Of a stretch of DNA of 64,000 bases, positions 1,426 to 44,321 are shown piece after piece. The position numbers and the translations under genes were made by a program. The stretch is from positions 13,775 to 77,774 of the forward strand of contig JAAWGF010000003.1 in assembly GCA_022795155.1 (NCBI GenBank), written 5' to 3'. The first letter of the stretch is position 1. Each line of letters begins with the position of its first letter. Source of the stretch: Bacilli bacterium (GTDB lineage: Bacteria > Bacillota_I > Bacilli_A > RF39 > UBA660). The notes under the pieces were generated by a model. The model had not been told where the DNA came from. It did no database searches and was given only the letters and a program-made list of their open reading frames with translations.

Positions 1426-3825
1426 TTACTTTATAACAATATTAACGATTTTAGATTGAATTACAATAATTTTAACAATTTCTTTTCCATCAATAAATTT
1501 TTTAACATTATCTATTTCAAGCGCTAATGCTTCCATTTCTTCTTTGGATGTATTAATATCAACTTCTAATTTTCCTCGAACTTTACCATTAACTTGAACA
1601 ACCATTTGATATTTTTCTTCTTTTGTCTTATTAATATCAAACTCTGGCCATCTAGAATAACTAATAGTATCATTATTCCCTAAAATTTGCCATAATTCCT
1701 CTGTTATATGCGGTACTACCGGATTAAGTAGTTTTAAGAAATTTAAAGCATACGCAAGTGGAAATACCTCTTCTTTATAAACGGCATTAATAAAAATCAT
1801 CATTTGACTAATAGCTGTATTAAAATTCATCGTCTCATAATCTTCGGTTACTTTTTTTACTGTTTGATGATATATTTTCTCTAAATTTTTATTATCGCTA
1901 TCTTTAATTTTATTCTCTTCAACATATAAACGCCAAACACGATCTAAAAATTTTTTTGACCCTTCAATACCATTTGGATCCCATGGTTTAGCGGCATCGA
2001 TGGGTCCCATAAACATTTCATAAAGTCGTAAACTATCAGCACCATAAAGGTTTACCATATCATCAGGATTAATAACATTTCCTTTTGATTTACTCATTTT
2101 TTCACCATTTGGTCCCAATATCATACCTTGATGACGCAATTTATGAAATGGTTCTTTAGTTGTTGTATATCCTTTATCAAATAAATAATTATTCCAAAAT
2201 CTTGAATATAATAAATGCCCTACAGCATGCTCTGGACCACCAACATATAAATCAACTGGCATCCAGTGCTCTAATAGTTTTTTATTAGCAAAATCTTCAT
2301 TATTGTCTGGATCAATATATCTTAAAAAATACCAACTTGAGCCAGCTGATCCAGGCATTGTACTTGTTTCTCTTTTACCCTTAACACCATCAATCTCTAT
2401 ATTAACCCAATCCTCAGCTTTATTAAGGGGGCTAGCACCTGTTTTACTTGGACTATAATCCTCTAAAGTAGGTAAAACTAGTGGTAATTTTGAATCATCT
2501 AAAACAATATCTTGATTATTTTCTAGATGGACAATTGGAATTGGTTCTCCCCAATATCTTTGACGAGCAAAAATCCATTCTCTTAAACGATAATTAATTT
2601 TTTTATTGCCTAACTTTTTATCCTCTAACCAATTAATCATCTTATCAATAGCGTCTTTTTTATTTAAACCATCAAGGAAATCAGAATTAATATGAGTACC
2701 ATCGCCAATATAAGGAAGTTCTGTATTATTACTATCTATGTTTTTAATAACAGGAGCAATTTCAATATTAAATTTTTGTGCAAATTCAAAATCGCGTTCA
2801 TCATGGGCAGGAACGGCCATAATCGCACCTGTCCCATAAGTTGCTAAAACATAATCAGCAATCCAAATAGGAATCTTTTTGCCATTTACAGGATTAATCG
2901 CATAGCTACCTGTAAAAACACCAGTTTTTTCTTTACTTAATTCTGTACGCTCTAATTCACTTTTACTAGCACATATAATCTTATAATTTTTTACATCTTC
3001 TGAACATTCTTCAGTAGTTATTTTATCAACTAAATCATGTTCTGGTGAAAGGACACAGTATGTAGCACCAAACAAGGTATCAGGTCTTGTCGTAAAAACT
3101 GTAAAAGTGTAATCGGTATTATTAACTTTAAAATCGACGTGAGCGCCAATCGATTTGCCAATCCAGTTTCGTTGCATCTCCTTAGTTGATTCAGGCCAAT
3201 CAATTTCATCTAAGCCATCAAGTAATCTATCTGCATATTTAGGAATATCAATAACCCATTGTTTCATATTTTTTCTAACAACTGGAAAACCACCACGTTC
3301 ACTTTTACCATCAATAATCTCATCATTAGCTAAAACAGTTCCTAATGCTTCACACCAATTAACTGGCATGTCAATATTTTTGGCTAAACCATCATTATAT
3401 AATTGTTTAAAAATCCATTGTGTCCATTTATAAAAGTTAGGGTCACAAGTAGAAACTTGTCGATCCCAATCAAAAGAAAATCCTAACATTTTTAATTGTT
3501 TTGTAAAAGTATCAATGTTTTTTTTCGTAAATCCTTCTGGATGATTGCCTGTTTTAATCGCATATTGTTCAGCTGGAAGTCCAAATGAATCAAACCCCAT
3601 AGGGTGCAAAACATTAAATCCCTGCATTCTTTTCATACGTGATACAATATCTGTTGCTGTATAACCTTCTGGATGCCCTACATGTAACCCTTGTCCTGAT
3701 GGATAAGGAAACATATCCAAAGCATAATATTTAGGCTTACTAAAATCCCAGATATCTGTTTTAAAAGTTTTATTCTCTTCCCAATATTTTTGCCATTTTT
3801 CTTCTATTTTTTTAAAATCATACAT
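1426..3825 (-). CDS. leuS: Leucyl-tRNA synthetase
   Basis: 799 aa; class I HIGH-type motif (HVGHPEGY), KMSKS motif, LeuRS length and editing-domain layout. RBS AAAGAGGG upstream. ATG overlaps the TAA of the upstream small ORF (TAATG). Confidence 0.97.
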
Positions 3826-3826
3826 A

Positions 3827-4171
3827 TTATTTACCCTCTTTCTTTAGTAATGACTTAGCTAAAATATGATAGCTAACTAATATAAGTGGAAATAAAGCAA
3901 CAAAGCCCAATAACATTTTTAAAATAAATTTATCAATAAATAAAACAATTATAAATGTCGTTGAAATTATGAAGCTATCGCATAAAGCTATCCGGTTAGA
4001 TAACGTACGTAAATTAATGGTTTCTATATTGATATGATAACGGTTAATTAAATATCTAACTTCCAAACTCTTTTTTAATTTTTCACTAGCTTTTTTCCTT
4101 TTCACAACAAATAAAAAATAAATTATGTAAACAAATATAAAAGTAATAATGTAAGTACCTAAGTATTTCAT
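3827..4171 (-). CDS. Small hydrophobic membrane protein, unknown function, translationally coupled to leuS
   Basis: Track ORF 3827..4192. The start is more likely ATG at 4171 ([11 protein letters not shown]...) because a strong RBS GAAGGAGG sits 5 nt upstream and the 4192 start would make the RBS coding. Two or three predicted TM helices. Sits between the Leu T-box and leuS. Confidence 0.5.
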
Positions 4172-4192
4172 AATGCCTCCTTCAAAACACAA

Positions 4193-4417
4193 AAAAGATA
4201 TTATTCTTTAAGGACGAGGATAACCCGCGGTACCACCTTAATTCATAATAATCTTTATGCTCTTAATATTTTTAACGCAAATGTACGTCATATATTTAAC
4301 ATATATGAAGCTAAGAAAGTAAGTTCATAATATTCAATTAAAAGTTTTCACCAACCACTTTTTCTCTAAAAACATCTATATTATTACTACTCTTTCGTAA
4401 TCACTTTTTATAAACTA
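4193..4417 (-). promoter_or_regulatory. T-box riboswitch leader, leucine-specific (UGGU bulge, putative CUU specifier)
   Basis: Minus strand reads AATTAAGGTGGTACCGCGGG (plus 4224..4244), a near-perfect match to the T-box consensus AAnnnGGGUGGnACCGCG. The UGGU bulge pairs with the ACCA end of tRNA-Leu (discriminator A). Antiterminator: UUAAGG/[UGGUACC]/GCGGG-UUAUC-CUCGU/CCUUAA. Stem I carries AGAGA..AGUGG..GGUGAAA distal-loop-like motifs and GAACUUA (CUU Leu codon). A weak AU-rich hairpin and U-run follow. Confidence 0.8.
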
Positions 4418-4460: not shown

Positions 4461-5249
4461 CTATTTATTATTATCAATTTTGATATTTACAAAATCTTGA
4501 ATAGAAATTATTTTTCCATATTCAGATAGCATTCTCTTATATGAATTCGTTTTCTCATTATTTAGATTATCATCTAAAACAAATATTAGTTCCTTATTCT
4601 CCTTCTTTAACATAATAGAATTAGTTATCCACATCTTTAAAATAGCGACATATCCATTATAATTATCTTCAGTCAAAAAAATCAATTTATAATACTTATC
4701 ATCTATTTTATAATCAAAATTTATATTATTGCCATATTTTTCTTGAATAGCATTTTTATGACCACATCTCTCATAAAAAATATTATTTTCTAAAAAGTGC
4801 TTTTCAATAAAAGCTTTACTTTCCATTTCATTAACTCTTTTTTCTTTGCTAATATCATAATATAAATAAATATTTTTTAAATTATCTAATAAATCTTTGA
4901 AACTATCTTCTGTATTTATTTCATGTATTTCAAAAATAAACTTATTAACAAAGTATTTCGTTAATTCATCTAATAATAAGATATTATCTAGGCTTATTCC
5001 GTCAAAATCACTTAATAAATTGATTGTAAATTGCTCCTTTAAATCATCGACATATTTTTTTAAAAATGGTATATCAGCTTCATCATCAAAACTTCTTACT
5101 CTTTTCCAATTATTAATAATAATCATATCCAATTGCTTGCTTTCTGGATAATGTAAAACGATTGCTATATTTATTCTTTCATTTCGTTCAAGATTTGGAA
5201 CATATTTTAAAACAGCATATTTAGCTTTAAATTTTCCCATTATTATCAC
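4461..5249 (-). CDS. DUF3037-like protein, partner of the upstream HipA_C-like kinase
   Basis: 262 aa. N-terminal motif KYAVLKYVPNLERNERINIAIVL resembles what I recall of the DUF3037 signature. Overlaps the upstream kinase-like gene by 23 nt (5227..5249), implying co-translation. Confidence 0.45.
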   Translation of the reverse strand: MIIMGKFKAKYAVLKYVPNLERNERINIAIVLHYPESKQLDMIIINNWKRVRSFDDEADIPFLKKYVDDLKEQFTINLLSDFDGISLDNILLLDELTKYFVNKFIFEIHEINTEDSFKDLLDNLKNIYLYYDISKEKRVNEMESKAFIEKHFLENNIFYERCGHKNAIQEKYGNNINFDYKIDDKYYKLIFLTEDNYNGYVAILKMWITNSIMLKKENKELIFVLDDNLNNEKTNSYKRMLSEYGKIISIQDFVNIKIDNNK

Positions 5250-6015
5250 CCTTCAAATTTAAAAGTTCTATAATCTCATCAACTCTGTTAAAGCGACCTA
5301 TTATATAATCAACTAATACTTTCTTTTCTTCATTACTAACTTCCCAATCACTTGGAATATCATTCATAATACTTTCAACTAATTCTTTCTTTATATTTTT
5401 TACCTTTTTTATAAATTTATTCAATTCACTATAAAATATATCGTTCAATTTAAGAGAATTCATGATATTTAAATAATTAAACTGATGTAAATATAATACG
5501 CTGAATTTTTCATTTATAAATCTAGGAAGTTGATATTTATCCCAAATAGTTCCTAATCCAAATATATGTGTATGATCTATCATTATGATTTTTTTAGAAA
5601 TGGAATGAATCATTAAATTACCTTTATTCCTATCATAATTACCAATTAATAAATCAAAAATTAAAGTTTTAATAGCATCATAACTATTTTGTGCTCTTGA
5701 GATCATTCCAGCATTCAATATAGTAAGTAATTTATCATCATAAAGTGTCCCAAAAGCAGTTCCTTCAATATGTTTAATATCTTCTTTGTCTATTTTATCA
5801 TAATTTTCTTCTTTTATATTAATTAACTTATATTCCATAATCGGTAATTCTAAGTATTCACACAATTTAGAAGCTACAAATTCATTAACAAGTGCCCTTT
5901 TTCCTTCTGGATTACCTGGAAATTTTACGACATAAGTTTTACCATCATCACACCATACAACATAAGGAACTGTACAGCCATTACCAAGTTTATTTTTTAT
6001 TTCAACAATATTCAA
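5227..6015 (-). CDS. HipA C-terminal-domain-like Ser/Thr kinase-fold protein (short, no HipA N-domain)
   Basis: 262 aa. NEFVASKLCEYLELPIMEYKLI matches the start of HipA_C (NEhltmrLArlaGi.v). GNYDRNKGN aligns to the HipA catalytic loop DxHxxN with H replaced by N. IDHTHIFG is a DFG-like Mg-binding region. Confidence 0.55.
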   Translation of the reverse strand: MNIVEIKNKLGNGCTVPYVVWCDDGKTYVVKFPGNPEGKRALVNEFVASKLCEYLELPIMEYKLINIKEENYDKIDKEDIKHIEGTAFGTLYDDKLLTILNAGMISRAQNSYDAIKTLIFDLLIGNYDRNKGNLMIHSISKKIIMIDHTHIFGLGTIWDKYQLPRFINEKFSVLYLHQFNYLNIMNSLKLNDIFYSELNKFIKKVKNIKKELVESIMNDIPSDWEVSNEEKKVLVDYIIGRFNRVDEIIELLNLKGDNNGKI

Positions 6016-6287: not shown

Positions 6288-8714
6288 TTAAACTTCACTA
6301 ATATATTCTAATAATTTTAAGAATAATCGAATGAATTTTCTTTCTAAACCAACTTTTTTTAATTTACGAAGCGCTATTCTTTTTTTCTTAAGTGGTAATT
6401 CACTAAAAATAATTTGATCTATCGTTTCCTTCATTTCCGTTTCAATCTGTAAATCATATAAAATTGATTGAATCTCCTCATTAATTAATCTAACTGTGTC
6501 TATTTCAATGTTTTTACCCTTGCAATTAAGTGTTAATTGACCAATTGTCGGAATCTCATTTATTTCAACTACAAAGTCATTATCTTCAATATAACTTTTA
6601 TATTGGACAGGCTCATTATTAAAATAAATAATAACATCATTAGCCTCTTTCGTATTTCTAAATCGAACTTTATAATTTCGTTTTTCAGGAACAATACCAC
6701 TTTTACCTTCAAGGGCTCTAATTATAACTGTATAATTATTCGGCAAATAATTATATTCAATTGAAGATTTTAAATAATAACCCGTTTTATAAAGATCACT
6801 AACACCATCATCTTCATATAATTCATATTTATTGCTTCGTCCCGGAAAAATTTGAATTTCCATATTTTTAGGTGGTGTTGTATCATTCATATTTTCATTA
6901 TCACCCAATGCAATAATAGATCCAGCTTTGGCAAAAACTGGGTAATCATCATCTTTAAAGAAAGACACATAATTTTTACCACCAGGGAACTTTTTCCCAG
7001 TAACAAAATCATACCAAATCCCCTCTGGCATATAGAATTTGTGAATAACTCGTTGCATAACAGATTCTTTTTTATTTATAATGGGACAAATGAATAGCTC
7101 ACTACCTAAATAATATTCATTTCTATAAATTGGATCATCATACATCTCAGGGTTTTTATAATAAATTGGCTGAATAACAGGAACACCATGTTTATGATAT
7201 TTGTAAGCTTCTGTATATAAATAAGGAATTAAACGATGACGTAATTTTAAATAATCCTTAACAATATTATAAGTTTTATACCCCCATTTCCATGGCTCAC
7301 GACGATAATATTTACCTTTTTCACTACCAAATTTTAAAATGGGACTAAATGTTCCTAATTGAACATAGCGTGTATATAATTCATCATCCTCAATACCTTT
7401 ATAAAAACCACCAATATCATGACTCCACCAACTTACACCATTATTAGCTGCACTTGCATTATGAATTGGAATAAGTTTCAAAGTAGCCCAACTAACAGTG
7501 CTTTTTCCCGAATATAAAACAGGATAACGATGTGGCGCAATTAAGGAATTAGTTGTAAGTAACATTGGTCTTCTTTTATAATTTCGCATCATATCATAAA
7601 AATGATAATGATTTAAAATCCATAAATCATCATTTTTTTTAGGATTGTTATAATCTAACCAAAAGAAATCAACATCTAAATTATCCAATGGATGAATAAG
7701 TAGTTTTAAATATACGTCTAAAAATTTAGGATCTAAAACATTAAAAGGAATAATTGTTCCAGGCGTAACTTGTAAATATTCGCATATCTTATTATAATAA
7801 ACTTCATAAGGATAAATTCCTGAACTCGGATCGATATTTAATCCTAACCTAATTCCTTTCGAATGAAGATAAGCAATTATTTCCTTAGGATTTTTTATTA
7901 GCGTATTATTAAAAGTAAAACCTGTTTCGATATTTGATACTTCATCATACTTATTTAAATGCCATTCATTATTTAAAACAATAACGGAAAGGGGAATATT
8001 TTTATTTTCAAAATTAGAAACCAATTCGCCTAGACTATCATCAGTATATGAGATATTACGACTCCACCAATTTCCTAAAGCATAACGAGGAATTAAAGCT
8101 GGATACCCAGTTAAACGATAATAATCATCTAAACAACCTTGGAAATTTTTATAATACATAAATAAATAAATATCAATATCATTTTTATCATTATTACGTT
8201 CAATAACGCTACCAGTTTCTTCAATTATTAAGCTTTTAGAATCATCAATACTAACAAAGCCATCAATAGAATATAAACCTTTTTTATATTTGGCCCTATG
8301 TTTTTTCCCTTTTTTTTCATATAACTCTAAACCTGGGCTACCGTAATTACGTACTTCAGGATGACCATAATACCAAATGCGATCACTACCTAATAACTCA
8401 ACTTTTAGATTAGCGGTTGGATTTATTTTAGTAGCAGGAAATGGCTTATCTTTTAAATAGGTTAAGCAAAAGTATTTAGTAGTTATTTCTAAATATTTCG
8501 CATCCTGTTTAACTTTAAAGTCAACTACCCCTAAATCCCTATGCCATGCAAACTGGGTTGGTCGATCTTCAAAAATTCCATTTTCACTATACTCTAATCT
8601 AACTAATCTTTCAGTAATAACGGAAATACGATATTTTTGGCCTACCATTATACATTTTGGATTAACTTTAGATAATGTATAATCTATTTCAAATTGTTCG
8701 CCAATCTTATACAT
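6288..8714 (-). CDS. Glycoside hydrolase family 31-like protein (alpha-glucosidase/alpha-xylosidase type)
   Basis: 808 aa. WLDYNNP (nucleophile Asp region) and WSHDIGGF (acid/base region) fit the GH31 TIM barrel. Size and N-terminal beta-sandwich typical. Confidence 0.65.
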   Translation of the reverse strand: MYKIGEQFEIDYTLSKVNPKCIMVGQKYRISVITERLVRLEYSENGIFEDRPTQFAWHRDLGVVDFKVKQDAKYLEITTKYFCLTYLKDKPFPATKINPTANLKVELLGSDRIWYYGHPEVRNYGSPGLELYEKKGKKHRAKYKKGLYSIDGFVSIDDSKSLIIEETGSVIERNNDKNDIDIYLFMYYKNFQGCLDDYYRLTGYPALIPRYALGNWWSRNISYTDDSLGELVSNFENKNIPLSVIVLNNEWHLNKYDEVSNIETGFTFNNTLIKNPKEIIAYLHSKGIRLGLNIDPSSGIYPYEVYYNKICEYLQVTPGTIIPFNVLDPKFLDVYLKLLIHPLDNLDVDFFWLDYNNPKKNDDLWILNHYHFYDMMRNYKRRPMLLTTNSLIAPHRYPVLYSGKSTVSWATLKLIPIHNASAANNGVSWWSHDIGGFYKGIEDDELYTRYVQLGTFSPILKFGSEKGKYYRREPWKWGYKTYNIVKDYLKLRHRLIPYLYTEAYKYHKHGVPVIQPIYYKNPEMYDDPIYRNEYYLGSELFICPIINKKESVMQRVIHKFYMPEGIWYDFVTGKKFPGGKNYVSFFKDDDYPVFAKAGSIIALGDNENMNDTTPPKNMEIQIFPGRSNKYELYEDDGVSDLYKTGYYLKSSIEYNYLPNNYTVIIRALEGKSGIVPEKRNYKVRFRNTKEANDVIIYFNNEPVQYKSYIEDNDFVVEINEIPTIGQLTLNCKGKNIEIDTVRLINEEIQSILYDLQIETEMKETIDQIIFSELPLKKKRIALRKLKKVGLERKFIRLFLKLLEYISEV

Positions 8715-8737
8715 AAATTCAACCCCTTATATATTTA

Positions 8738-9178
8738 TTATTCATTCTTTTTATTCATTTTCCTTATTCTTTTTAATATAAATAGTATTATAAATAGTAG
8801 CACAATTATAATTGTGGCAATTACATAATTATACAGATTGGTGGGTTCTTCTTCTCTTTCTTCAACAATTTCCTCTTGGTCTAAAATGTTGGCAAAAATA
8901 TATTCTCCACTTTCCTTAGAATACAAAAAATATTCTCTTGCATATCTTGCTTTATACTCATCATTTTTTAACTTAGATAATTCTTTAGTTAAATTTGTTT
9001 CATCTTCTTGTAATTTTGTTAAGTTATTTTGTAAGGTTTGTTGTTCTAAACTAAGATTTTTTATATTTAACAGCATCGAAAAAGCACTAAAAATAAAGTA
9101 TGATATTACTACAACACTAAGACCACCAAAAATAATAAGTCTTCTTTTTGATTCTTTTGTTACTTTTCTTTTTACCAC
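8738..9178 (-). CDS. divIC: Septum formation initiator DivIC/FtsB family
   Basis: N-terminal TM, coiled coil, and NDEYKARYAREYFLYSKESGEYIF matching the B. subtilis DivIC C-terminal motif (DEDYVTELARRDLFMSGDGEIIF). Conserved yabP-yabQ-divIC order. Confidence 0.85.
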   Translation of the reverse strand: MVKRKVTKESKRRLIIFGGLSVVVISYFIFSAFSMLLNIKNLSLEQQTLQNNLTKLQEDETNLTKELSKLKNDEYKARYAREYFLYSKESGEYIFANILDQEEIVEEREEEPTNLYNYVIATIIIVLLFIILFILKRIRKMNKKNE

Positions 9179-9209: not shown

Positions 9210-9497
9210 TCATTTTTTAGTTTTTTTGGCAATAATACGATTAATACAAATGTCAACAAAAAAGCCAATTATAACCATAATAATTGAATACGGATGAAGA
9301 ATAGCGTTATTTATTTTTTTTATACTAATAAAATAAACTAATACAGCTATAATTATAATTAAAAAAGACGATAGAATTTTTATAAAAGGTTTAGAACTAT
9401 AAATAAATTTATAATTAATATTTAAAAATATGGAAAAAATAAATCCATAAAAAAAAGAAAAAACAATTAAAATTATTTGCGTTTTTAAATCCATCAT
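9210..9497 (-). CDS. yabQ: Spore cortex biosynthesis membrane protein YabQ
   Basis: 95 aa, three TM helices, directly downstream of yabP with a 4-nt overlap (ATGA); B. subtilis synteny. Confidence 0.6.
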   Translation of the reverse strand: MMDLKTQIILIVFSFFYGFIFSIFLNINYKFIYSSKPFIKILSSFLIIIIAVLVYFISIKKINNAILHPYSIIMVIIGFFVDICINRIIAKKTKK

Positions 9498-9784
9498 TTA
9501 AATAACTTATTAAATACTCCGTCTTCTTTACTTTTTTTAGATAAACTTTCCATATATGTTAAACTATTAACTTTTCCCTTAATGGAAACATTTCCTTGGT
9601 ATGTATCTAATTTTACAATTTCTAAATCTTCGCCTTTTAAAACAATATACCCCATATTAGTTTCCATTAAAAATTCTTCATTATCAAAACTATCAATTTT
9701 TTTTACTCCTGTAATAACAATATTTTTACGTTCACTTAAAGTTACAACATGTCCTAATGTATTAAAACTTTCTACCTTGTCCAT
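9494..9784 (-). CDS. yabP: Sporulation protein YabP
   Basis: 96 aa; LTLSERKNIVITGVKKIDSFDNEEFLMETNMGYIVLKGEDLEI matches the YabP family. Confidence 0.8.
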   Translation of the reverse strand: MDKVESFNTLGHVVTLSERKNIVITGVKKIDSFDNEEFLMETNMGYIVLKGEDLEIVKLDTYQGNVSIKGKVNSLTYMESLSKKSKEDGVFNKLFK

Positions 9785-10197: not shown

Positions 10198-10410
10198 TTA
10201 ATAGTCGATTTTTATCGTTTTAGTAATAACATCAGAATATGAAAATGATTTAATCTCATTTTTTATTTTTGATTCTTTAATTTCGACAAGAAAAACATTT
10301 TTATAAAGTTCCTTTATTTTCGCATTATATTTTTCATATTTATTCCGTCCAAGACTACACTTTATGACTACTTCTTTACCTAAAAATTCATTAAGCCTAC
10401 CTCTAATCTG
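10198..10410 (-). CDS. veg: Veg protein (biofilm/sporulation-associated small DNA-binding protein)
   Basis: Track ORF 10198..10497 overlaps yabG. A GTG at 10410 preceded by GAGGAGG gives MTIEQIRGRLNEFLGKEVVIKCSLGRNK...VFLVEIKES..SFSYSDVIT.TIKI, matching B. subtilis Veg (about 86 aa). Confidence 0.85.
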   Translation of the reverse strand, partial: QIRGRLNEFLGKEVVIKCSLGRNKYEKYNAKIKELYKNVFLVEIKESKIKNEIKSFSYSDVITKTIKIDY

Positions 10411-10432
10411 TTCTATTGTCACAAATTCCTCC

Positions 10433-11212
10433 TCATCTAGGATAACCAATATACATTGTCCCTTTTGTTTTGATACCACCCATTCCATCTTTACCATACT
10501 TGGTATTTTCTAAAATATTGATTAAATCAATATCTTTGCTGATGTCGGATAAGCTGACACGAGTCGCAATAATGGCAGGATCTAATGCATGAATATTGAT
10601 GCGTTTAGGACTAGAAGCAAAGTTAGCACCAGCTTTAATTAATTCTTCGTAGTCTGATTGACAAGCACCAGCAATAATAATTAATTTTTCATGACTATGT
10701 TCATATTTTCTCGCCTCTTTAATTGAAGCAACAAAATTTTGGCTATTTTTATATGCTGACAAATCATCACGCCCACCTTTTTTTTTATAATAAGCATCAT
10801 GGCCAGTTATAACTAAGATATTAGGATTGTGAAGTTCTAGTAATTCACGAATTTTAAAAGGAACATTTTCTTCATCTTCTCTAACACCGATGGCCATTAA
10901 ATTGTCTTCTTCATAATATTTTAAACATTTATCTAAATATTCATTATCCCCATCAATATGTAATATTTTGCCTGGTAAATAAAAAAATTCGCTTCGATCT
11001 AGATCCAAATTGGGCTTTATACGTTCTAAAAATTCTTGATCTTCTTCAAATTCTTGATCATATATAATTAAGTCATCAACAGGACTATCCGCAATTAGTC
11101 TAACATTAATTCCTTTTAAATAGCAAATATCATTGTCAATTGATATAATTTTAAAAACCATATCATTATTATAGGAATTTCTAGTAACTAAATCTCCTTC
11201 TTTAAAATCCAT
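10433..11212 (-). CDS. yabG: Sporulation-specific protease YabG
   Basis: 259 aa; the N-terminus MDFKEGDLVTRNSYNNDMVFKIISID..VRLIADS matches the YabG family; yabG-veg adjacency as in Bacillus. Confidence 0.8.
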   Translation of the reverse strand: MDFKEGDLVTRNSYNNDMVFKIISIDNDICYLKGINVRLIADSPVDDLIIYDQEFEEDQEFLERIKPNLDLDRSEFFYLPGKILHIDGDNEYLDKCLKYYEEDNLMAIGVREDEENVPFKIRELLELHNPNILVITGHDAYYKKKGGRDDLSAYKNSQNFVASIKEARKYEHSHEKLIIIAGACQSDYEELIKAGANFASSPKRINIHALDPAIIATRVSLSDISKDIDLINILENTKYGKDGMGGIKTKGTMYIGYPR

Positions 11213-36183: not shown

Positions 36184-36495
36184 TTAGAAAAACTTATCTA
36201 TATCTTTTGGAACCTTATCATTAACAACAGCTTCAATTATTTTATTTTCTTTTTCTTTTGGAACTTCTTTTCCAGTTAGCGCTCCAAGTTCTTGAATAAC
36301 CTCTCTTAGAGTAGCCTCATTCTTTAAATCATTTTGTTGAAGTTTTTTAGCCAGTTCTAGGATAGTATCCTTTCCAACATTAGTCTTCTTTTCAATTTTA
36401 TTGAAAAATTTATCAGAAAAATTAAACATATACTTTCCTCCTAATGTAGTATATGTTTTTATCTTTTTTTGGTTAATACTATAGTTCCTGTTCAC
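36184..36495 (-). CDS. Small K/E-rich hypothetical protein (weak resemblance to small sporulation proteins such as SpoVIF)
   Basis: 103 aa by the track; real start likely MFNFSDKFFNKIEKKTNVGKDTILELAKKL...; family assignment is weak. Confidence 0.3.
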   Translation of the reverse strand: MNRNYSINQKKIKTYTTLGGKYMFNFSDKFFNKIEKKTNVGKDTILELAKKLQQNDLKNEATLREVIQELGALTGKEVPKEKENKIIEAVVNDKVPKDIDKFF

Positions 36496-37840: not shown

Positions 37841-38338
37841 TTATTTATTATAAAACAATAAATTGTTTTTTTTCATAATTCCTTCTATATCATAACATAT
37901 TTCTTTGCAATATTCTAGTAAATTACCAAAATTTATATTATCAATTTGATCATTTAATTTAATATATAATTCATTATTGTATTTATATAGAGAATAATTA
38001 ATATTATTTAAATAATTTTTAGCTCCAAAGAAATCTGCTATTTTATATAAAAAATTGGCGTTATTATGAATAGTTACTTGCGTATCGATTTGGTCAATTA
38101 AATAATCATAATATTCAATATCTTCATGTCTCATTGTAATGATAACGCCATAGTTATTATCTATATATGCATCAATGTTATAATAACCGCTTATTTTAAG
38201 ATTGTAAGAATTTTTTAAATTAAAAAATAAATCGTTCATATACTCTTCTAAAGCATTTAAATCTAAAAAATCAGTTTGTTTTGTATAATACCTATTTAAA
38301 TAAATAGTAATATCTTCATCACTCACATTAACTTTCAT
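37841..38338 (-). CDS. MecA-like adaptor protein (possible; shorter paralog)
   Basis: 165 aa; N-terminus MKVNVSDEDITIYLNRYY versus MecA MEIERINEHTVKFYMSY; C-terminus SLYKYNNELYIKLND...NLLEYCKEI versus MecA LYSFENRYYLYVDF...ILLEYATES. Confidence 0.4.
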   Translation of the reverse strand: MKVNVSDEDITIYLNRYYTKQTDFLDLNALEEYMNDLFFNLKNSYNLKISGYYNIDAYIDNNYGVIITMRHEDIEYYDYLIDQIDTQVTIHNNANFLYKIADFFGAKNYLNNINYSLYKYNNELYIKLNDQIDNINFGNLLEYCKEICYDIEGIMKKNNLLFYNK

Positions 38339-38381: not shown

Positions 38382-38963
38382 TTACATTGTTCGTTCAATT
38401 TTTTCTAGTGTTTCATCACGACCTAATTTAGTAACATTTGAAAACATAACAAAATCGTCTCCTACAACTAATTCTAAATCTTCTAGCAATTGCGCTCTTT
38501 GCTTTTGTTGTAAGGTAATTCCAACTTTATCAGTTTTGGTAGCGACAATCGTAACTGGTATCTTATAATGTTTTAAAAAATTATACATCATTGTATCATC
38601 ACTACTTAACTTATTACGAAAATCAATTAACATAAAAACTTGTTTTAAATTAGGACGATTAACTAAATAGTCCTCCATCATTAAACCAAATTTTTTTTGT
38701 TTTTGCTTACTTAAATTAGCGTATCCATAACCAGGTGCATCAACTAAATAAAAACTATTATTAACTAAATAAAAATTAATTGTTTGTGTTTTACCTGGAT
38801 TTGAAGATGTTCTAGCATAATTTTTACGACTTATAATCGTATTAATAAAACTACTTTTTCCAACATTAGAACGTCCTACTAATAAATATTCAGGTAATTC
38901 GTCAGTCGGATATTGACTACGTCTTACAGCACTAATAACTAAATCAACACTAGTGATTTTCAT
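38382..38963 (-). CDS. engB: Ribosome-biogenesis GTPase EngB (YsxC/YihA)
   Basis: 193 aa; G1 GRSNVGKSSFIN, G3 DAPGYG, G4 TKTDK. Confidence 0.92.
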   Translation of the reverse strand: MKITSVDLVISAVRRSQYPTDELPEYLLVGRSNVGKSSFINTIISRKNYARTSSNPGKTQTINFYLVNNSFYLVDAPGYGYANLSKQKQKKFGLMMEDYLVNRPNLKQVFMLIDFRNKLSSDDTMMYNFLKHYKIPVTIVATKTDKVGITLQQKQRAQLLEDLELVVGDDFVMFSNVTKLGRDETLEKIERTM

Positions 38964-39095
38964 TTTTTCACCTTTTTTCTACTAAATACTATTTTAATTA
39001 TACTCTAACGTTTATTTTTAGTCAACTTATGATTTTTATTGACATTATAATTATTAATGTTATAATACTTGAAAAAAAAGGTGGGGGGGGAAGTT

Positions 39096-39992
39096 ATGAG
39101 CAATCGGATTATAAAAGGTATAAATATTTTGTCAAATCAAATGATAAATTTGCACATCGATAAAGAACCTATAATCATTGATGAAATGCAACTAACATAT
39201 GAAAATGATAGCCAAAAAGCTGAAGTAATTTCTACGGAAACAGGCATACCAGTTAAATATATATATGACTATTCAAAAAATTATACTAAAAATTGGATTA
39301 AAATTGATGGTAAATGGTTTTTCGTAAAGAAAACATATGATAATTTAAAATTTTTTAATGAATTACTCGGTCAAGAAATATCTAGTTATTTTCAACTAGA
39401 AACAGTTAATTATAAAATTGCTAAAAAATTTGAAGACTGTTATTTTGACAATTGTTTATTATCAGAAAACTTTTTTGATAATAATTATGATTATCTTACT
39501 TTTGAAGATTTACAAATAGATACTATAGATAAAAAATTAGCCGAAAGATTAAATTTAATCAAACAAGTATGTAAAAAATATAAAGATGAAAATTATTTAT
39601 TATTAGAAGATATTATAAAAATGAGCATTCGCGATTTATATTCTAATATGCATGACCGTCATAATCGAAACTTCTTCTTTAAAAAAAATGATAATGGCAT
39701 TAGACTGGCACCACTATTTGATTATGAACATTCTTTTATAACACCACCTTCTTTATATCAGAATCCACTATTAAGATTAGACATTTACGATAAAGAAACT
39801 GGAGAATTAATAAAAAATGATGATAATTTTCAAGAATCAATTAATAGATTAATGGATATAAACATTGAAAAATTATTAGAAATTACCCAAGAAAAAAATG
39901 GTATAAGTATTTCAGACGGACTTAAAAATATATTTATTAATCATGATAGAAATGCTAAAAACATCGTTAAAAGTTTTTACTTAAGAAAATAG
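39096..39992 (+). CDS. HipA C-terminal-domain-like kinase, orphan (no adjacent partner gene)
   Basis: Start taken at ATG 39096 (MSNRIIKG), 5 nt after a G8 tract acting as the SD; the track ORF starts at 39069. Catalytic loop MHDRHNRNFFF is a perfect DxHxxN. LAPLFDYEHSF matches HipA LAPAYDL. NELLGQEISSYFQLETVNYKI matches the HipA_C start. Confidence 0.5.
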   Translation: MSNRIIKGINILSNQMINLHIDKEPIIIDEMQLTYENDSQKAEVISTETGIPVKYIYDYSKNYTKNWIKIDGKWFFVKKTYDNLKFFNELLGQEISSYFQLETVNYKIAKKFEDCYFDNCLLSENFFDNNYDYLTFEDLQIDTIDKKLAERLNLIKQVCKKYKDENYLLLEDIIKMSIRDLYSNMHDRHNRNFFFKKNDNGIRLAPLFDYEHSFITPPSLYQNPLLRLDIYDKETGELIKNDDNFQESINRLMDINIEKLLEITQEKNGISISDGLKNIFINHDRNAKNIVKSFYLRK

Positions 39993-40010
39993 AGACAATT
40001 TTTTGTCTCT
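39991..40010. terminator. Bidirectional hairpin terminator between convergent genes
   Basis: AGAGACAA-TTTT-TTGTCTCT perfect 8-bp inverted repeat flanked by T/A runs. Confidence 0.65.
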
Positions 40011-40021
40011 ATTTTATAATA

Positions 40022-40735
40022 CTAACGAATATATTTTTTCTTTGGCGCTAATTTTGATAATAGAGCAATTATTCCAACTAAAGAAATTATTACTACTATA
40101 ATAAATCCATTATTGCTTAAATCTAAAGTTTTTGGATTTGTTGCATTAGTTTCAACTAAAACATAAGTGCTAAAATGGTCTGTTTCAAATTCAGCATAAT
40201 TATCTTTAACAGATACATTAAATTTAGTTAAATCTCCATTATCTTCATTTGCTCTTGTATCATTAAATTTTATATTATTATTTATTAAATAAGAACGTTT
40301 ATATATTTTACCATGCATATAAACAAAATTAGCTTCATACATTTCTCGCTTATTATCATGTTCATATAAAATATTACTAATAACTAAATCCGTTTTTGTT
40401 TCTTTAATTTTTTTATATAGTAATTCTACGGAATAACAATTATAAAAAGTATCATCAGCATCAATAAACATAATATATTCGGAATTACTATTATCTATAC
40501 CATACTGTCTAGCAATACCTGGTCCACTATTTTTTTAAAGTGTTAATTCCACTATATTAATCCAATTTTTTAAAAAAGAAATTTCTTCTTGATAATTATA
40601 ATCAGATGCATCATTTACTATATAAACATTTAAACAGTTCTTTATTGTTTGTAAAGAAATACTTGCTAATGTTTTAAAAATTGTTTCTTTGGCATTATAG
40701 GCTGGTATTATTATATCAATCATTTCAATCACCAC
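40022..40735 (-). pseudogene. Family-2 glycosyltransferase pseudogene: in-frame TAA splits it, and the remnant is fused in frame to a sortase-type cell-wall-anchor tail
   Basis: Track ORFs 40535..40735 (IIIPAYNAKETI...SISLQT, GT2 N-terminus) and 40022..40471 lie in the same frame, separated by TAA at minus 40537..40535 next to an A7 run. Read-through gives ...ELTL*KNSGPGIARQYGIDNSNSEYIMFIDADD (GT2 DxD motif). The second ORF ends ...FSTYVLVETNATNPKTLDLSNNGFIIVVIISLVGIIALLSKLAPKKKYIR, which is an NPKT sorting signal plus TM plus a basic tail. Confidence 0.6.
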
Positions 40736-43727: not shown

Positions 43728-44030
43728 TTACTTAAATAATTCACTGTGGCTTCCAGTTGCAAAAAGTAATAAAATTAACTTTTCATCTTCCATTTGATAA
43801 ACCAAAAGCCAATCAGGTTCAATATGACATTCATAACAATCTTTATAAATCTTATTATTTATAAGATTATGATTTTTATATTTAGAGTCTAATGCTTGAC
43901 CATTCGCTAATACTTTAAGAACATCTAAAAATTTATTTTCATCTTTGCCCTGTTTCAAGATTCTCTTGAAATCTTTTTTAAATTGGCTAGTAAATTTTAC
44001 TTCATATTTGGTATTTTGCAAATCAAGCAT
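43728..44030 (-). CDS. yafQ: Type II toxin, RelE/ParE superfamily (YafQ-like mRNA interferase)
   Basis: 100 aa; YKDCYECHIEPDWLLVYQMEDEKLILLLFATGSHSELFK matches the YafQ C-terminal signature (ECHIKPDWLLIY...RTGSHSDLF). Confidence 0.8.
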   Translation of the reverse strand: MLDLQNTKYEVKFTSQFKKDFKRILKQGKDENKFLDVLKVLANGQALDSKYKNHNLINNKIYKDCYECHIEPDWLLVYQMEDEKLILLLFATGSHSELFK

Positions 44031-44321
44031 TTACTTTTTTAAATCCTCAAGCATTTCATACATATTGTGGTAGCCTTTTGTTTTCATCTTTCCATTTAAT
44101 ATATTTTCACCATCCTGTAGTGCTTCCAATAAATTTTCACTGGGTTTCGGATTTTTAACTTCAAATGGCAAACCGTCTTTATATATCAATTGTTTAATAG
44201 CCATATTTACAAATGTACTCATATTAAGCCCTAGACTTTTCAAAATTCCATTGGCAACTTCTTTGTCATGATTATCTACTTGTACACTAATTGCACTTGT
44301 AAGTGTTTCCATATTATACAC
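44031..44321 (-). CDS. dinJ: Type II antitoxin, DinJ/RelB family
   Basis: 96 aa; LKSLGLNMSTFVNMAIKQLIYKDGLPFEV matches the DinJ ribbon-helix-helix family. Stop abuts the toxin start (TAATG-type coupling). A palindromic operator lies upstream. Confidence 0.75.
   Translation of the reverse strand: MYNMETLTSAISVQVDNHDKEVANGILKSLGLNMSTFVNMAIKQLIYKDGLPFEVKNPKPSENLLEALQDGENILNGKMKTKGYHNMYEMLEDLKK

Follow-up and report, generated by a model that had tools for sequence, protein, structure and literature searches.

A single-gene unit for a predicted HipA/CtkA-fold kinase with a G8 homopolymer at its Shine-Dalgarno position in a low-GC Bacilli genome

A stretch of 64,000 nucleotides (nt) from a Bacilli bacterium (contig JAAWGF010000003.1 of assembly GCA_022795155.1, positions 13,775 to 77,774; here called the window, G+C content 25.5%) contains a gene for a HipA-like kinase whose start codon is preceded by a run of eight G residues (G8). 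On the basis of sequence comparison and structural modelling we consider it probable, though well short of certain, that this gene is a self-contained single-gene unit encoding a kinase of the HipA/CtkA fold, and that the G8 run is its Shine-Dalgarno (SD) element rather than a switch. In the proposed scheme, a TG-extended consensus promoter would generate an unstructured leader of ~24 nt, in which the G8 run would pair with CCUCC through one G-U wobble to allow translation from ATG 39096, and a strong hairpin would end the transcript. The product would be a cytoplasmic ATP-dependent protein kinase, most likely acting on Ser/Thr, with a HipA-like chemistry in which K78 and E89 hold ATP, D187 serves as catalytic base and N192 and D209 bind Mg2+, and its control would be post-translational or triggered. 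The elements of the unit are the following:

39039..39066, + strand: kinase promoter of the sigma-A/sigma-70 type, with TTGACA at 39039..39044, a 16-nt spacer, TG at 39058..39059 and TATAAT at 39061..39066
39072..39095, + strand: predicted 5' leader of ~24 nt, A8-GGT-G8-AAGTT
39083..39090, + strand: G8 homopolymer, putative SD element, preceded by GGT and followed by AAGTT and ATG 39096 (5 nt spacing)
39096..39992, + strand: kinase coding sequence (CDS), from the list of open reading frames (ORFs), with its stop codon at 39990..39992 and 298 amino acids (aa) from the ATG
39327..39362, + strand: codons of K78 (39327..39329) to E89 (39360..39362), predicted ATP-anchoring Lys-Glu pair
39654..39671, + strand: catalytic loop D187-R-H-N-R-N192, within the Pfam HipA_C match (residues 148-232)
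39705..39728, + strand: LAPLFDYE motif with D209 (39720..39722), the predicted Mg2+-binding Asp, aligned with D332 in the LTPFYD of HipA
39986..40015, no strand: 13-bp hairpin between the convergent kinase and glycosyltransferase genes (minimum free energy (MFE) -15.5 kcal/mol, z -5.9)

The kinase promoter matches the consensus at 12/12 positions in the promoter scan, in addition to its TG extension, and its two hexamers are retained in six homologous loci. Including it, the window holds just two 12/12 promoters, against 0.22 expected. The 130 nt between the divergent engB and kinase genes show 85% identity per column over seven aligned loci, in all of which both promoters are intact, and the SD region is the sole variable part of this alignment. 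The kinase transcript is predicted to start at ~39072..39074. Its leader appears unstructured, given that the RNA fold of 39073..39160 has an MFE of -7.1 kcal/mol (z +0.5 versus shuffles), whereas the hairpin behind the stop codon was equalled by none of 200 shuffles. The latter was not called by a simple terminator scan, and is likely to be a bidirectional intrinsic terminator closing the unit; the kinase gene is regarded as a single-gene unit because it has its own promoter and this hairpin after its stop codon.

The sequence around the G8 run and the start codon, TTGACATTATAATTATTAATGTTATAATACTTGAAAAAAAAGGTGGGGGGGGAAGTTATGAGC, agrees with an earlier reading made from the letters alone (the sequence-only reading), in which ATG 39096 was placed 5 nt 3' of the run. 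That reading had also offered an alternative in-frame ATG at 39069, where the codon is in fact TTG. This TTG begins 3 nt past the -10 box (39061..39066) and was rejected as a start codon because it is located at or before the predicted transcript start. A 44-aa ORF at 39029..39163 was likewise rejected as an upstream start, as it begins 5' of the -35 box, and a 319-aa form of the protein (P0002) was recognised as a gene-caller extension in a relative in which this 44-aa ORF is in frame. Homologs align from the Met at 39096, and the evidence for the CDS includes a ratio of nonsynonymous to synonymous substitution rates (dN/dS) of 0.21-0.28.

Regarding the protein, the sequence-only reading had called it HipA-like, and fold and catalytic residues bear this out, its activity being predicted. 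The AlphaFold model obtained from 21 homologs (pLDDT 87.3, pTM 0.86) was compared with the PDB by means of Foldseek, which gave CtkA of Helicobacter pylori (3akj) as the top match (E 2.5e-7, TM score 0.53-0.57), further matches being HipA of E. coli and Shewanella, HipT of Legionella and E. coli, PI4KII, Fam20 and CotH. For CtkA, HipA and HipT the Foldseek probability was 1.00, at E-values from 2.5e-7 to 1e-4 and TM scores of about 0.45-0.57, and as modelled the protein has the HipA/CtkA fold. The search for the Pfam domain HipA_C (PF07804) that had been suggested as a check did return a match to residues 148-232 (21.2 bits, E 2.4e-4), though one below the gathering cut-off of 30.5 bits. NCBIfam gave no match, and PHROGs only a marginal one (E 0.011) to a functionally uncharacterised family.

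The two motifs that had first drawn attention to this protein are present, DRHNRN as D187-N192 and LAPLFDYE as L204-E211, but the description of the former as perfect was too generous, since D187 and N192 are its only residues invariant in the family and H189 varies. K78, E89, D187, N192 and D209 are invariant in an alignment of 21 homologs; in a second alignment, of 54 diverse members, D187 and D209 are invariant, K78 and E89 are conserved in at least 90%, and N192 in less than 90%. Alignment by hhalign of the family profile with E. coli HipA placed D187, N192 and D209 on D309, N314 and D332 (probability 17%, with a single-sequence template). In the model, K78 is at the end of a beta strand and E89 in the helix that follows, and from this we infer that the two form the usual Lys-Glu pair of kinase-like folds. 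Comparison with the profile of another HipA-like protein encoded in the window, of the HipA_2 family, aligned GKxYxxK...NE and DRxxxN (probability 52%, E 1.4e-4). The hairpin W67-IKIDGKWFFV-K78 contains one partly conserved Gly and no conserved Ser/Thr, and was left unaligned to HipA by hhalign. Ahead of this core is an N-terminal extension of ~65 aa, poorly conserved and modelled as two short strands plus two helices, in which Pfam detected neither a helix-turn-helix (HTH) nor any other domain, the weak HipA_C match being the only one in the protein; the segment KAExISxETGIPxxYIY is HTH-like by eye only and is unconserved in the wider family. The sequence gives no evident indication of a signal peptide or membrane segment.

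The G8 run is the sole G run of at least six in the window, in which an order-1 model predicts 0.008 runs of eight, so that its presence is far above chance. It is situated outside the CDS and 3' of the -10 box, at the position of an SD; relatives are G-rich there too, in line with the suggestion of the sequence-only reading that the run doubles as the SD. Typical SDs of this genome are GGAGG, AGGTGA and GAGGTG, and therefore its anti-SD would be canonical. Using a Bacillus 16S 3' tail as an assumed stand-in, pairing of the G8 leader with CACCUCCU is predicted at -12.9 kcal/mol, and the values for G7, G8 and G9 leaders are -12.9, -12.9 and -13.0 kcal/mol, respectively, with an unchanged distance to the AUG; at G4-G5, lengths found in relatives, the predicted duplex still reaches about -9 kcal/mol. 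At the aligned position, the SDs of the window and of syntenic relatives, with the identity of each kinase to that of the window, are:

Window: GGTGGGGGGGG, 100%
L029: GAGGGG, 85%
L030: GGGAGG, 81%
L033: GGGGG, 79%
L001: GGGGG, 72%
L002: GGTGTAG, 57%

Because the syntenic relatives carry shorter G-rich SDs at this position, G8 appears to be a strain-specific expansion of an ancestral GGGGG or GGGAGG element.

This also bears on the proposal that slippage of the run would alter SD spacing and thereby place the kinase under phase-variable translational control. The spacing argument fails because the tract itself is the putative SD, the 3' end of which remains 5 nt from the ATG at every tract length. 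One and the same protein is encoded on ten contigs, each derived from a different sequencing run or assembly, and G8 is present in all ten consensus sequences; a scan of JGI metagenomes with the leader and a variable gap for other tract lengths gave 0 matches. Tracts of this length slip readily in other low-GC bacteria. As slippage by one G would leave pairing and spacing essentially unchanged, and G8 is constant in 10/10 assemblies, no sign was found that the run is an on/off phase switch.

G runs at the SD are nevertheless a habit of the family. A run of at least four occurs within the 22 nt before the start in 15 of 25 family loci (the window, L001-L018, L029-L034 and L043-L047) versus 9 of 232 other ORFs of these loci (Fisher p 4e-12, a value uncorrected for shared ancestry, the upstream regions of distant members being unalignable), and precedes 2 of 58 other genes within the window. 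Only two G or C runs of at least seven are present in the ~300 kb covered, G8 of the window and a G7 in L007 (7883..7889), both of them at SDs of family members.

The absence of a partner was assessed across the family. An indexed protein database yielded 23 relatives, none of them named and each originating from gut metagenomes or metagenome-assembled genomes of uncultured Bacilli or "Tenericutes", and a second indexed-database search, performed with a diverse alignment, gave 25 matches at E<=1e-5, of which two were new and none had an informative name. An exhaustive profile search recovered 732 representatives at E<=1e-3, of which 417 reach E<=1e-10; almost without exception they are 260-310 aa long, and they stand for clusters at 50% identity (~730). 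HipA_C matches (E<=0.01) occur in just 8 of 54 diverse members and are weak; a minority of the family weakly matches HipA_C, PI3_PI4_kinase, Fam20C or HipA_2. No match was obtained by tblastn against phage and plasmid collections, and a protein scan of JGI metagenomes gave 5 loci only.

In L001, L002, L030 and L033 the kinase gene is located directly between engB and uvrC. The flanking genes of ~20 more distant loci are mutually unrelated, and no neighbour is conserved over the ~25 loci; from N-terminal sequence, we take some of these neighbours to be queA, def, hpf, secA, dus and a class II aminoacyl-tRNA synthetase gene, and one encodes a rhodanese-domain protein (Pfam). The sequence-only reading had seen no HipB/HipS-like partner, and none was found either at the locus or in the ~25 homologous loci, with no Couple_hipA/HipS-like match among the neighbours and small ORFs scanned. 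A DNA-binding regulator adjoins the kinase in three loci only, and is of a different type in each (XRE, XRE-CYTH, WYL). XRE-HTH neighbours were considered as analogues of HipB and dismissed, as they are adjacent in just 2 of ~20 distant loci (L043 and L045) and differ in architecture, one being a CYTH fusion. Most family members have their own promoter (at least 10/12) and a short leader, and judged from these loci the orphan status seems to hold family-wide. Within the window, the lone kinase contrasts with a bicistronic RelB-YafQ pair at 43728..44321 (-), consisting of a RelB-family antitoxin (44031..44321) and a YafQ/ParE-family toxin (43728..44030) in a canonical type II toxin-antitoxin arrangement.

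Tandem paralogs of the kinase are found in L006 (~4959..5825 and ~7899..8765) and L009 (3586..4518 and 4604..5536), and in L010 (6613..7496) a homolog is split into pieces of 57 and 188 aa, probably as a pseudogene. The engB-uvrC gap acts as a small variable islet: in L034 (1681..2487, +), and also in L035-L039, it holds a gene for a 268-aa eukaryotic-type protein-kinase-like (ePK-like) protein (CQDLSFENILV...DIDG) with a Pkinase match of 21 bits and weak PADLOC matches to PD-T4-6 and mad6. In L034 this insertion separates the HipA-like gene, which begins 13 nt further downstream, from the conserved promoter; the product of that HipA-like gene is 74% identical to the kinase of the window. A PADLOC match of the window's own kinase to PDC-M03A, a HipA-like component, is weak (29.4 bits, E 1.4e-7, residues 82-214), and the B component of PDC-M03 is absent, there being no second gene in the kinase unit.

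Substitution rates were determined for the window versus six syntenic relatives. The kinase gene shows a synonymous divergence (dS) of 0.24-0.65, equal to that found for engB, der and uvrC (0.21-0.85), which argues for vertical descent in common with its neighbours; allelic replacement or horizontal transfer, considered as a cause of the low kinase identity, was rejected on the same ground. In contrast, its nonsynonymous divergence (dN) of 0.07-0.24 is 5-20 times higher than that of engB, der and uvrC (0-0.046). EngB is accordingly 97-100% identical in relatives whose kinase is at just 57-85% identity, and in L030 EngB is 100% and the kinase 81% identical. With a dN/dS of 0.21-0.28 versus five colinear relatives and ~0.37 versus L002, the most distant syntenic one, together with a high dN, the kinase is constrained yet fast-evolving. 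Residues 1-45, 136-150 and 226-240 are the most variable, and 166-210 and 256-270 the least. This fast evolution, which the proposed scheme leaves unexplained, suggests an accessory role related to conflict or stress rather than a housekeeping one. A 165-aa protein encoded between der and engB (37841..38338, -) without Pfam or NCBIfam match, and syntenic in all relatives, also changes at a much higher rate than the genes around it (74-93% identity, dN 0.03-0.17).

The second 12/12 promoter of the window is located inside the kinase gene:

39108..39135, - strand: second perfect TTGACA-16-TATAAT promoter (12/12), within codons 5-14 of the kinase gene and directed towards engB

The only two 12/12 promoters of the window thus face each other across G8 and the ATG, with predicted starts ~28 nt apart, and an antisense RNA with a predicted start at ~39101 would cover the ATG, the G8 run and the leader. 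The antisense promoter scores 12/12 in the window, 11/12 in L029 (85%-identical kinase), 10/12 in L034 and at most 9/12 elsewhere, and its -10 box corresponds to Ile-Ile-Lys codons. Chance could account for its presence in this lineage; alternatively, it may serve engB as a second promoter or give rise to a real antisense restraint.

Several observations weigh against the reading of an autonomous kinase gene with G8 as its SD. The facing antisense promoter is not accounted for by it, and neither is the family-wide preference for G-run SDs. The pairing energies depend on a stand-in for the 16S 3' tail; the ten G8 assemblies represent one widespread clone, with 100% identity to the window across as much as 6.9 kb, and consensus assemblies hide minority tract lengths. 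Sequence similarity to HipA is weak, as illustrated by the sub-threshold Pfam match and the hhalign probability, and neither HipA nor CtkA was retrieved when the family alignment served as a profile against PDB sequences, the sole match being a spurious one to a choline-binding repeat. A HipA-type Gly-rich loop with its autophosphorylated Ser was not recognised in the homolog alignment, and ATP binding may therefore differ. Lastly, the fold neighbours include the lipid or atypical kinases PI4KII, Fam20 and CotH, so that a non-protein substrate is possible.

Among the rival explanations, we rate as rather unlikely that of a growth-arresting Hip-type toxin for which something other than a neighbouring protein serves as antidote. 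The antidote could in that case be a small molecule, an RNA from the antisense promoter combined with RNA polymerase collision, or the N-terminal 65 residues acting in cis, the role suggested for the HTH extension of HipH/YjjJ. The HipA/HipT-like fold and catalytic residues would fit such a toxin, as would the existence of growth-arresting single-gene Hip kinases, HipH/YjjJ and HipL (PMC8262856; PMC9948734), and the two consensus promoters opposed over SD and ATG, of which the antisense one is largely retained in the closest relative. Yet that promoter is missing in most family members and in syntenic L001 and L002, where the genes are nevertheless intact, and its -10 box is simply a set of Ile-Ile-Lys codons; the N-terminus, moreover, has no Pfam domain and is modelled as two short strands and two helices. 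A consensus promoter and a strong SD would be odd for an unguarded toxin, and the gene has kept its place in the chromosome up to a dS of 0.65. The absence of an antitoxin from every homologous locus, together with vertical descent at engB-uvrC, argues that the kinase is not a classical type II toxin, and without an antitoxin its activity would have to be controlled post-translationally or by a trigger. Considering the strong expression signals, the vertical inheritance and the lack of plasmid or phage relatives in the collections searched, the label of toxin is doubtful. Quite unlikely, too, is a role in abortive infection against phages, in which the single gene would encode a kinase that lies dormant until triggered and then shuts the cell down by phosphorylation. 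Such a role would be consistent with the PDC-M03A match, with a fast-evolving protein beside nearly fixed neighbours, with the tandem paralogs, with an engB-uvrC gap that has received a glycosyltransferase gene here and an ePK-like gene (weak PD-T4-6) in L034, and with the presence in the window of a second HipA-like protein in a candidate defence pair (PDC-M66A/B); but the PADLOC match is weak and lacks its B partner, the neighbours in other loci are housekeeping genes rather than defence islands, no phage or plasmid relatives were found, and the family is without a known defence phenotype.

There is a slim chance that the G run is a contingency or tuning tract, slippage of which alters the leader and SD and sets the kinase dose across cells or lineages. 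Its length is one that is prone to slip in other low-GC bacteria, and the longest G run at this position measures 8, 4, 3, 5, 5 and 2 in the window, L029, L030, L033, L001 and L002, respectively, with a G4 in the kinase's own SD in L034. The enrichment of such runs at family SDs and the confinement to two of them of all long G/C runs in ~300 kb point the same way, and the tlpB/RepG pair of H. pylori offers a precedent (PMC8295292). Set against this are the G8 of all ten assemblies, a spacing that is independent of length, a predicted pairing equal for G7-G9 and still favourable at G4-G5, the lack of any length that would yield an OFF state, and an enrichment statistic that is uncorrected for shared ancestry. 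A similarly slim prospect is held by a combination of the above, in which a growth-arresting kinase is dosed by a mutable poly-G SD kept family-wide and an antisense RNA containing C8 provides a type I-like restraint in this lineage; if true, this would be an RNA-level restraint on a Hip kinase, an organisation undescribed for the superfamily. Very improbable, finally, is an enzyme that is not a protein kinase at all, be it a small-molecule or lipid kinase or one of the CotH/Fam20 type acting on coat or secreted substrates. Fold matches to PI4KII (E 7e-4), CotH and Fam20, weak matches of some family members to PI3_PI4_kinase or Fam20C, sporulation-type genes in the genome (SpoVIF, YabP, DivIC) and the failure to find the Gly-rich loop would favour it, but Ser/Thr protein kinases make up all the top fold matches (CtkA, HipA, HipT), the sequence has no evident signal peptide or membrane segment, and no context links the gene to sporulation or lipid genes. 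The autonomous protein kinase with a G-run SD is the reading retained here.

Other features of the locus and of the window are listed below:

38382..38963, - strand: left neighbour ysxC/engB, encoding a ribosome-biogenesis GTPase (TIGR03598, 209.7 bits versus a cut-off of 124)
38997..39025, - strand: engB promoter TTGACT-17-TATAAT (11/12), invariant in seven aligned loci and back to back with the kinase promoter
40022..40735, - strand: right neighbour, a pseudogene of a family-2 glycosyltransferase (GT2), both fragments of which match Pfam Glycos_transf_2
5227..6015, - strand: first HipA-like gene of the window (HipA_2, PF20613, 90 bits), beside a DUF3037 gene

The position between engB and a decayed glycosyltransferase gene that the sequence-only reading had assigned to the kinase is confirmed by the TIGR03598 match on the left and, on the right, by a GT2 frame broken by one in-frame TAA (40535..40537). 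EngB is no partner of the kinase. The GT2 gene is missing from L001, L002, L030, L033 and L034, in which the kinase abuts uvrC, and it is a lineage-specific insertion; the pseudogene is identical across all ten assemblies. The kinase is, as had been stated, the second HipA-like protein of the window. The first is encoded by the HipA_2 gene, which overlaps the DUF3037 gene at 4461..5249 by 23 nt (both -); the pair matches the PADLOC candidate defence pair PDC-M66A/B (75.7 and 29.8 bits), and the HipA_2 kinase matches phrog_3162 (E 1.8e-40). A T-box leader (4207..4410, -; Rfam RF00230, 120.9 bits) is located upstream of an ORF at 3827..4192 and of a 799-aa ORF at 1426..3825. Small genes of sporulation or Bacillus type, SpoVIF, DivIC, YabP and Veg, are present at 36184..36495, 8738..9178, 9494..9784 and 10198..10497, respectively (all -). 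Long ORFs of the window are intact under genetic code 11, and the labels carried by relatives are uncultured Bacilli or Tenericutes.

Research on Hip-type kinases has treated them as persistence toxins, nearly always together with an antitoxin; targets are GltX for HipA and TrpS for HipT. The kinase described here represents a family of ~730 clusters of short HipA/CtkA-fold kinases from mammalian gut Bacilli, which is unnamed, missed by Pfam and NCBIfam, and partner-less. Should its members be active kinases, they would widen the single-gene Hip-like range beyond HipH, HipL and CtkA and prompt the question what restrains such enzymes, and the G-run SD habit of the family poses a small puzzle on translational tuning.

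Hip kinases share four motifs and, by the criteria used for their selection, an adjacent antitoxin gene (PMC8262856). The present protein has the catalytic D-x-H-x-x-N motif (D187-R-H-N-R-N192) and the Mg2+-binding Asp (D209), and no adjacent antitoxin gene was found at its locus or across the ~25 loci. It resembles E. coli HipA (hipBA) in its fold and in the alignment of D187, N192 and D209 with D309, N314 and D332, and differs in its sub-threshold Pfam match, in lacking the N-subdomain of ~100 aa, a recognisable Gly-rich Ser loop and HipB, and in its single-gene organisation. Single-gene exceptions among Hip kinases that arrest growth are HipH/YjjJ, with an N-terminal HTH, and HipL, with HipS-like and HIRAN domains (PMC8262856; for growth arrest, also PMC9948734). 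The kinase shares with these the Hip fold and the absence of an adjacent antitoxin gene, but has neither the ~100-aa N-terminal HTH extension of HipH nor the HipS-like and HIRAN domains of HipL. The title of one paper on HipH/YjjJ reportedly names c-di-GMP as an antitoxin. The short, core-only HipG, HipI, HipJ and HipM (279-321 aa) all have partners, namely HipR, HipS, HipS-HIRAN or a resolvase-like protein (PMC8262856); the kinase is of the same size class and likewise consists of the kinase core, but unlike these, which have a partner and all four Hip motifs, it lacks a partner, and no Gly-rich loop could be recognised in it. Unlike in HipBST, where HipS and HipB precede the kinase in an operon, the upstream gene is the divergent engB. 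With the HipA_2 (PF20613)-DUF3037 kinases (PDC-M66) it shares an N-lobe GKxYxxK...NE and DRxxxN that can be aligned, while it has neither a PF20613 match nor a DUF3037 partner.

As regards the G8 run, the variable G-repeat in the leader of H. pylori tlpB sets expression together with the small RNA RepG (PMC8295292), and is the only leader G-repeat precedent that was found in the literature. Both cases involve a homopolymeric G run, a short 5' leader and a low-GC genome, and a C-rich antisense RNA could in principle pair here as well; however, the tlpB repeat varies in length among strains and is read by an RNA acting in trans, whereas the G8 run shows no within-strain variation and its antisense promoter is only predicted. 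The closest structural counterpart of the kinase is CtkA (JHP0940) of H. pylori (3akj/3akk), the best match over 270 columns (E 2.5e-7), which it resembles in size (~275-300 aa), in having a kinase core without the HipA N-subdomain and in having no antitoxin. The gene for CtkA is carried by the conjugative element tfs3, and its product reaches its site of action, the host cells, via type IV secretion (PMC5536186), whereas the present kinase is only 15% identical to CtkA and is encoded among housekeeping genes without a mobile-element or secretion context. The kinase thus belongs to an unnamed family of the HipA/CtkA kinase-fold superfamily, outside HipA_C and the named Hip families.

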